This document shows positions 26,476 through 28,146 of a stretch of 64,000 nucleotides of DNA, piece after piece; within the stretch, counting starts at the first letter, position 1; each line of letters opens with the position of its first letter. This DNA comes from Escherichia coli. GTDB taxonomy: Bacteria; Pseudomonadota; Gammaproteobacteria; Enterobacterales; Enterobacteriaceae. The stretch lies in assembly GCF_003334305.1 (NCBI RefSeq), contig NZ_QOWS01000017.1. The stretch is one strand, 5' to 3'. The notes under the pieces were generated by a model. It saw nothing but the letters and a program-made list of their open reading frames with translations. It did not search any database and had not been told where the DNA came from. Made by a program: the position numbers and the translations under genes.

Positions 26476-28146
26476 TCATTTTTTCGCTCTCACCGGCATC
26501 CCATTTGCCACAAAATATCCCGCCGTGCTCCTCGGCAGCGCTTCCTGTCCACGAATCATATCCGCTATTTTCTCGCCAATCATAATTGTCGTGGCGTTCA
26601 AATTCCCGGTGATAATCTGCGGCATAATCGACGCATCCACCACACGCAGGCCTTCTAACCCGTGTACGCGGCCTTCGCCGTCAACCACGGACATCTCGTC
26701 GTAACCCATTTTGCAGGTACCGCACGGATGGAAGGCGGTTTCGGCGTGGTTACGCACGAACTCATCGAGCTGTTCATCCGTCTGACATTCCGTGCCGGGG
26801 CTGATTTCGCGGCCACGATACTGATCCAGCGCGGGTTGATGCATGATCTCGCGGGTGATGCGAATTGCGTCGCGGAACTCCTGCCAGTCCTGCTCGTGCG
26901 ACATGTAGTTAAACAGAATCGCCGGATGCTGGTGCGGGTCGCGGGATTTAATCCGCACATGCCCACGGCTTGGCGAGCGCATTGAGCCGACGTGGCACTG
27001 GAAACCGTGCTCTTTCACTGCATTCGAGCCGTTATAGTTAATCGCTACTGGCAGGAAATGGTACTGAATATTCGGCCACGCAAATTCCTCACGGCTGCGA
27101 ATAAATCCACCTGCTTCAAAGTGGTTGCTGGCACCAACGCCAGTGCCGCCAAACAGCCACTCCGCACCGATTTTCGGTTGGTTCCACCACTGCAGGGCAG
27201 GGTAGAGGGAAACCGGTTCTTTGCACTCATATTGCAGATACATCTCCAGATGATCCTGAAGATTTTCGCCGACGCCGGGTAATTCATGCACCAGCGGAAT
27301 ATCAAACTCCGCCAGCAGTTCAGCGTTGCCGACGCCGGAGCGTTGCAGGATCTGCGGTGAGGCAATCGCGCCTGCACATAACAGCACTTCTTTGTTGGCC
27401 GTTGCGCGGGTTGGGATGGTGCTGTCGCCTTCCAGCCATTCGACGCCCACCGCGCGTTTGCCGTCAAAAATGATGTGATCGGTCATAGCGTGAGTACGAA
27501 TGGTCAGGTTAGGGCGCGATTTGGCCTGATCGAGATAACCGCGCGCGGTACTGGCGCGACGGCCCTGCGGCGTGACGGTGCGATCCATCGGGCCAAAACC
27601 TTCCTGCTGATAGCCGTTGAGATCGTCCGTGCGCGGGTAGCCTGCCTGCACGCCCGCTTCAATCATCGCTTCAAACAGCGGATTGACGCCGGGTTTGGAG
27701 GTGGTGACGCTCACCGGGCCATCGCCACCGTGGTAGTCGTTCTCGCCCACATCGCGAGTCTCGGCCTTGCGGTAGTAGGGCAGGCAGTCGAGATAACTCC
27801 AGTTCTCCAGACCGGGTTCTTGCGCCCAGTTATCGAGATCCAGCGCATTGCCACGGATGTAGCACATGCCGTTGATCAGCGACGATCCACCCAGGCCTTT
27901 ACCGCGTCCGCACTCCATGCGGCGGTTATTCATAAACGGTTCAGGCTCTGTTTCATAGGCCCAGTTGTAGCGTTTGCCCTGTAGTGGGAACGCCAGCGCT
28001 GCGGGCATCTGGGTGCGGAAGTCAAAGCGATAGTCCGGGCCGCCCGCTTCAAGCAGCAGCACGGAGGTATTCGGATCTTCAGTCAGACGGGTAGCGAGAA
28101 CGTTGCCGGCTGAGCCGGCACCAATAATGATGTAGTCAAATTGCAA
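26476..28146 (-). CDS. betA: Choline dehydrogenase BetA, 556 aa
   Basis: Begins [23 protein letters not shown] (FAD-binding GMC oxidoreductase); the start appears to be TTG with an AGGAGG ribosome-binding site; follows betB. Confidence 0.9.

Follow-up and report, generated by a model that had tools for sequence, protein, structure and literature searches.

About 3% of E. coli genes start with UUG, which belongs to the three canonical start codons; the output of these three ranges over 10-100% of that of AUG (Hecht et al., bioRxiv 10.1101/063800). The choline dehydrogenase gene betA belongs to this class in the reference annotation of K-12: in MG1655 (NC_000913.3) it is listed as b0311 (NP_414845.1, 325577..327247) with TTG as its first codon, and the RefSeq betA of O111:H- strain 11128 is annotated from the same TTG. 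The TTG start of betA is therefore already known from the K-12 reference annotation and from the RefSeq annotation of other E. coli, and it is an ordinary one. A full-text literature search found no statement of it.

We examined this start in the window, by which we mean the whole 64,000-nt stretch of E. coli DNA analysed here. betA (choline dehydrogenase, TIGR01810 equivalog) lies on the minus strand at 26476..28146 and comprises 556 codons and a stop. Both direct reading and a script show that the codon at 28146-28144 (minus strand; feature 28144..28146) is TTG, the same codon from which the gene is annotated in MG1655 and O111:H- 11128, and that it is followed by CAA TTT GAC TAC ATC ATT ATT GGT GCC GGC. 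Read through the junction with betB, the minus strand is GAG ATG GCT AAA TTC CAG TCC ATA TTC TAA CCAGGAGGTTTAT TTG CAA TTT GAC TAC. The TAA (28160..28162, minus) is the stop codon of betB, and the gap that separates it from the betA TTG (28159-28147, minus, sequence CCAGGAGGTTTAT) measures 13 nt, as had been stated in a previous reading of this DNA made from its letters alone (hereafter the sequence-only reading). The same reading had placed a strong AGGAGG site 7 nt ahead of betA. The motif is indeed present (28152..28157, minus), with pairing to 16S rRNA that extends to AGGAGGT (28151-28157), but the script gives a spacer of 5 nt (TTTAT, 28147..28151, minus), or of 4 nt when the pairing is counted as AGGAGGT. 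The predicted duplex of this site with the 3' end of 16S rRNA has an energy of -11.0 kcal/mol. The TTG thus has a ribosome-binding site within the range of about 4-9 nt upstream that was considered for a UUG start.

betB and betI lie upstream of betA on the same strand, and a divergent ORF of 677 residues has the length of betT. betB (28160..29632, minus; 490 codons and a stop, with an ATG start at 29632) has the same length as b0312 in MG1655. The betI-betB junction (29633..29648, minus) provides an internal comparison: a TAA and 13 nt that hold GAGGAG and a 5-nt spacer precede the ATG. The two junctions share the same geometry, but betB starts with ATG behind a weaker site (-8.9 versus -11.0 kcal/mol). 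The 13-nt gap between betB and betA, with AGGAGG inside it, has the layout of a coupled junction. Around the betA and betB starts the RNA folds no better than shuffled controls (z-scores of 0.26 and 0.75), and a regulatory RNA structure around the betA start was rejected for this lack of excess folding.

The neighbouring frames carry some start ambiguities of their own. An in-frame GTG (29633-29635, minus) stands directly upstream of the betB ATG, and the program-made ORF list accordingly gives betB 491 residues instead of the annotated 490. In betI, an in-frame ATG at 30251 (minus) lies six codons upstream of the ATG at 30233 that fits the 195-residue K-12 protein; the former has no ribosome-binding site (duplex of +0.4 kcal/mol, versus -6.0 kcal/mol at 30233). 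Just past betT we also observed an ORF of 1349 residues (32902-36951, plus strand).

At the protein level, the 556-residue BetA scores 1033.6 bits against the NCBIfam equivalog TIGR01810 (cut-off 732.1) and spans profile positions 1-532 of 532. A score above the cut-off, the FAD motif and the betIBA/betT context all identify the protein as choline dehydrogenase. Position 1 of TIGR01810 aligns to BetA residue 4 and position 5 of NF002550 to residue 2, while solved homologues align from residues 2-4, including the oxygen-dependent choline dehydrogenase 9lq0, which does so from residue 2. The FAD-binding GAGSAG (GxGxxG) occupies residues 8-13, and since it begins at residue 8 the start cannot be located further downstream. 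Neither betA (b0311) nor its N-terminal peptide is listed in the part of the TRAINSPOTTER N-terminomics tables that was available to us, and both betA and betB are absent from the supplementary tables of the tetracycline ribosome-profiling study.

Within the species, the 501-nt junction region was found in 5180 of 5426 complete E. coli genomes, and it is 100% identical to the window in several of them, including O111:H- 11128. When 59 nt with the TTG in the middle served as the query, 5108 of the 5184 complete E. coli records proved 100% identical to it, and the other 76 carry 1-2 differences. The ATG version of this 59-mer has zero exact matches among complete E. coli records. Likewise, 35-mers in which the codon is ATG or GTG have no exact match, all 5149 matched E. 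coli records differing from them by exactly one base; this exclusion of ATG and GTG covers these 5149, in which the upstream 28-mer is intact, while the other 35 records are altered within those 28 nt. Alignment with betA from other E. coli, which had been suggested as a check, thus finds the TTG kept, with no ATG among the records that have the intact 28-mer. As for the distribution of the locus, 246 of the 5426 complete genomes lack the betB-betA junction, ten of its copies sit on plasmid-labelled records, and two copies occur in at least one E. coli genome.

The comparison was extended to other species by scanning one genome per species and retaining the best 80 loci encoding BetA (L003-L082, 77-98% identity). 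No Escherichia or Shigella is among them, E. coli itself being covered through the separate genome collection described above. Starts were located via the conserved [FY][DE][YF]xxxGxGSAG motif and then upstream to the nearest start codon. The start falls on the homologous codon in 51 of these best 80 loci, as TTG in 33, all of them Enterobacteriaceae, and as ATG in 18 (Enterobacterales). The remaining 29 have an ATG 1-3 codons upstream of that codon, and an ATG at or within three codons of the E. coli start is thus found in 47 of the best 80. TTG starts occur in Pseudocitrobacter, Enterobacter, Huaxiibacter, Lelliottia, Leclercia, the Klebsiella oxytoca group and Raoultella, as well as in Citrobacter amalonaticus, C. 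sedlakii and Citrobacter strain R56. In all 33 TTG-start species the GGAGGT core of the ribosome-binding site is invariant, with a duplex of -11.0 kcal/mol.

Among the ATG-start loci, Trabulsiella reads ATG-CAA-TTT-GAC (MQFDY) at the homologous codon, and the ribosome-binding site ahead of it is of comparable strength. The homologous codon is likewise ATG, in the form MEFDY or MEYDY, in loci from or labelled as Pluralibacter, Cedecea, Pantoea, Kosakonia, Rosenbergiella and Tatumella, several of which have an in-frame stop 0-5 codons upstream of the ATG, in some cases immediately adjoining it. The ATG lies 1-3 codons further upstream in most Pseudomonas and in all Moraxella, and at the same codon in three Pseudomonas. 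ATG-start orthologues vary more in their ribosome-binding sites, many of which are weaker (mean -7.3, s.d. 2.8 kcal/mol). The full GGAGGT sites ahead of every TTG start look like compensation, a pattern that is confounded by shared ancestry. Two loci in this set (L039 and L048) stand out for other reasons. In Pantoea sp. SOD02, the record that carries betA is 927 kb long and bears a plasmid label. The betA start region of Kosakonia cowanii is of the Pantoea type (MEFDY, TGAGGAGCGACTA) and not of the Enterobacter type, which suggests transfer or mislabelling.

Direct reading, the reference annotation, the orthologues and the family profiles all bear out the proposal of the sequence-only reading that betA starts at the TTG, and we consider it very probable that betA, the last gene of betIBA, is translated from the UUG at 28146. 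Initiation there may proceed as follows. The near-perfect AGGAGGU, 4-5 nt upstream, would position the 30S subunit at the UUG. The initiator tRNA would then read this codon with a first-position mismatch, a standard but somewhat less efficient mode of initiation in E. coli. IF3 discriminates against UUG starts, which are read with such a mismatch. As the betB stop is just 13 nt upstream, some betA initiation would probably be performed by ribosomes that finish betB, which would amount to translational coupling of the two genes. From what is generally known of bacterial initiation, the strong ribosome-binding site and re-initiation from the betB stop would offset part of the weakness of UUG. 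The likely net effect would be a rate of BetA synthesis similar to or moderately below that of BetB.

In a label-free proteome of BW25113, BetA was estimated at about 91 copies per cell (2 peptides) and BetB at about 143 (7 peptides) (PMC6544118, Table S3). The resulting BetA:BetB ratio of about 0.63 fits a lower output of BetA, but it comes from one label-free dataset obtained under non-inducing conditions, for a BetA that is membrane-associated; the difference is small, lies within label-free error and cannot be attributed to the start codon. That the TTG lowers BetA relative to BetB, as the sequence-only reading had put forward, is plausible, although much of its effect may be made up for by so strong a ribosome-binding site and by a coupling distance of 13 nt.

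The TTG could also be devoid of regulatory meaning: a tolerated accident of history, with a weakness for which the perfect ribosome-binding site and the coupling to betB compensate in full, and with BetA not appreciably under-produced. We regard this as possible, if somewhat doubtful. The TTG-start species all belong to one clade and may trace back to a single event. All of them have GGAGGT, the strongest site possible, at -11.0 kcal/mol compared with a mean of -7.3 in ATG species, and in Trabulsiella the same context holds an ATG. The BetA:BetB ratio, within error in its one dataset, also fits an accident. The behaviour of the first base of the codon speaks against it. When the 34 TTG-start sequences (87-98% identical to the window in protein) are aligned by codon, this T is never A or G, although only 8 of 200 four-fold degenerate sites (4%) are invariant and the adjacent spacer varies by genus in both sequence and length (TTTAT, TTTTT, TCATTT, TCATGT, TTTCA, TCTCA). 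The T is also unchanged in more than 5100 E. coli genomes. Such invariance would be unexpected for a neutral site, because A or G at this position would still give a working start. Among four-fold sites with a T majority, only 1 of 7 never shows A or G, in what is a small sample.

The invariance across the 34 sequences and the more than 5100 E. coli genomes hints that the TTG is preserved, and not merely tolerated. It is conceivable, but in our view unlikely, that selection in Enterobacteriaceae has kept the TTG together with a maximal ribosome-binding site, so that BetA synthesis would not exceed that of BetB and the aldehyde would be limited, or so that output would be sensitive to IF3. The descent of the TTG-start species from one clade and the viability of the Trabulsiella ATG are caveats to selection. 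If it does operate, the TTG would limit reactive betaine aldehyde, which is made by BetA and consumed by BetB, upon induction of the operon; alternatively, it would make BetA output sensitive to IF3 levels.

The frame upstream of the UUG at 28146 contains one other candidate start. The codon at 28191-28189 (minus; feature 28189..28191), which the sequence-only reading took for an in-frame ATG, is actually a TTG embedded in betB codons (Q-V-E-M). The sole nearby ATG (28184..28186, minus) is a Met codon close to the C-terminus of betB and is out of the betA frame, (28186-28146) mod 3 being 1; it is probably the ATG that the sequence-only reading had in view. No in-frame ATG exists upstream of the betA TTG before the in-frame stop: the 19 open codons contain one TTG, that at 28191, which is the only other in-frame ATG, GTG or TTG in this interval. 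The conclusion that 28191 should be set aside for want of a ribosome-binding site was nonetheless right, as the site there is very weak. Translation from this TTG inside the end of betB would yield a 571-residue BetA with a 15-residue extension, which we hold to be extremely improbable. The frame is open from there, the program-made ORF list gives this longer ORF, and 22 of the 33 other TTG-start species also have the upstream TTG, but this conservation is accounted for by the betB codons that it overlaps. With a duplex of -3.8 kcal/mol, against -11.0 for 28146, a ribosome-binding site is all but absent there. The spacer is 1 nt longer in seven Klebsiella/Raoultella-type loci (L022-L028), where this upstream TTG is consequently shifted out of frame and lies behind an in-frame TGA. 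This TGA is 15 codons upstream of the betA TTG with no other canonical start in between, and the proximal TTG is thus the only possible start in these seven loci. Three further loci, from Citrobacter (two C. amalonaticus and one C. sedlakii), have CTC or ATC in place of the upstream TTG, and many ATG-start species have in-frame stops 0-5 codons upstream. The 15-residue extension matches no position of TIGR01810 or NF002550. We therefore rejected 28191 as the betA start for its weak ribosome-binding site, its lack of in-frame conservation and an extension that falls outside the family profiles; taken together, the orthologue comparisons pin the start to 28146.

Sequencing error, which the sequence-only reading had raised as a possible wrong base call, can be discarded as the origin of the TTG, and so can the mutation of an ATG in particular strains, given the identity of the 59 nt in 5108 of 5184 independent complete E. 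coli records, the lack of exact matches to the ATG and GTG versions in such records, and the presence of the same TTG in MG1655 and in 33 other species.

The native start should be borne in mind when betA is engineered into other hosts, for instance to confer salt tolerance: it is a TTG, and exchanging it for ATG may raise BetA output. More generally, a TTG combined with a perfect ribosome-binding site and long conserved provides a small and clean example for the study of start-codon selection and of enzyme ratios within operons.

Compared with betA of MG1655, the junction and start region that was read (121 nt) is identical, including the TAA, CCAGGAGGTTTAT and the TTG, and both proteins have 556 residues. 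MG1655 shows no difference at the start site; over the wider 501-nt region, K-12-like strains have about 98% identity to the window. The ATG-start betA genes of Trabulsiella, Pantoea, Cedecea, Pseudomonas and Moraxella place their N-terminus at the same position relative to the FAD-binding motif, except that most Pseudomonas and all Moraxella proteins carry 1-3 extra N-terminal residues, and gene order is the same among ATG-start orthologues where the operon is betIBA. With the other UUG-start genes of E. coli, betA shares a near-cognate start that is read by the initiator tRNA and preceded by a ribosome-binding site. It differs from them in an unusually complete AGGAGGU, in its position 13 nt after an upstream stop, and in a TTG that is fixed across at least 8 named genera of Enterobacteriaceae.
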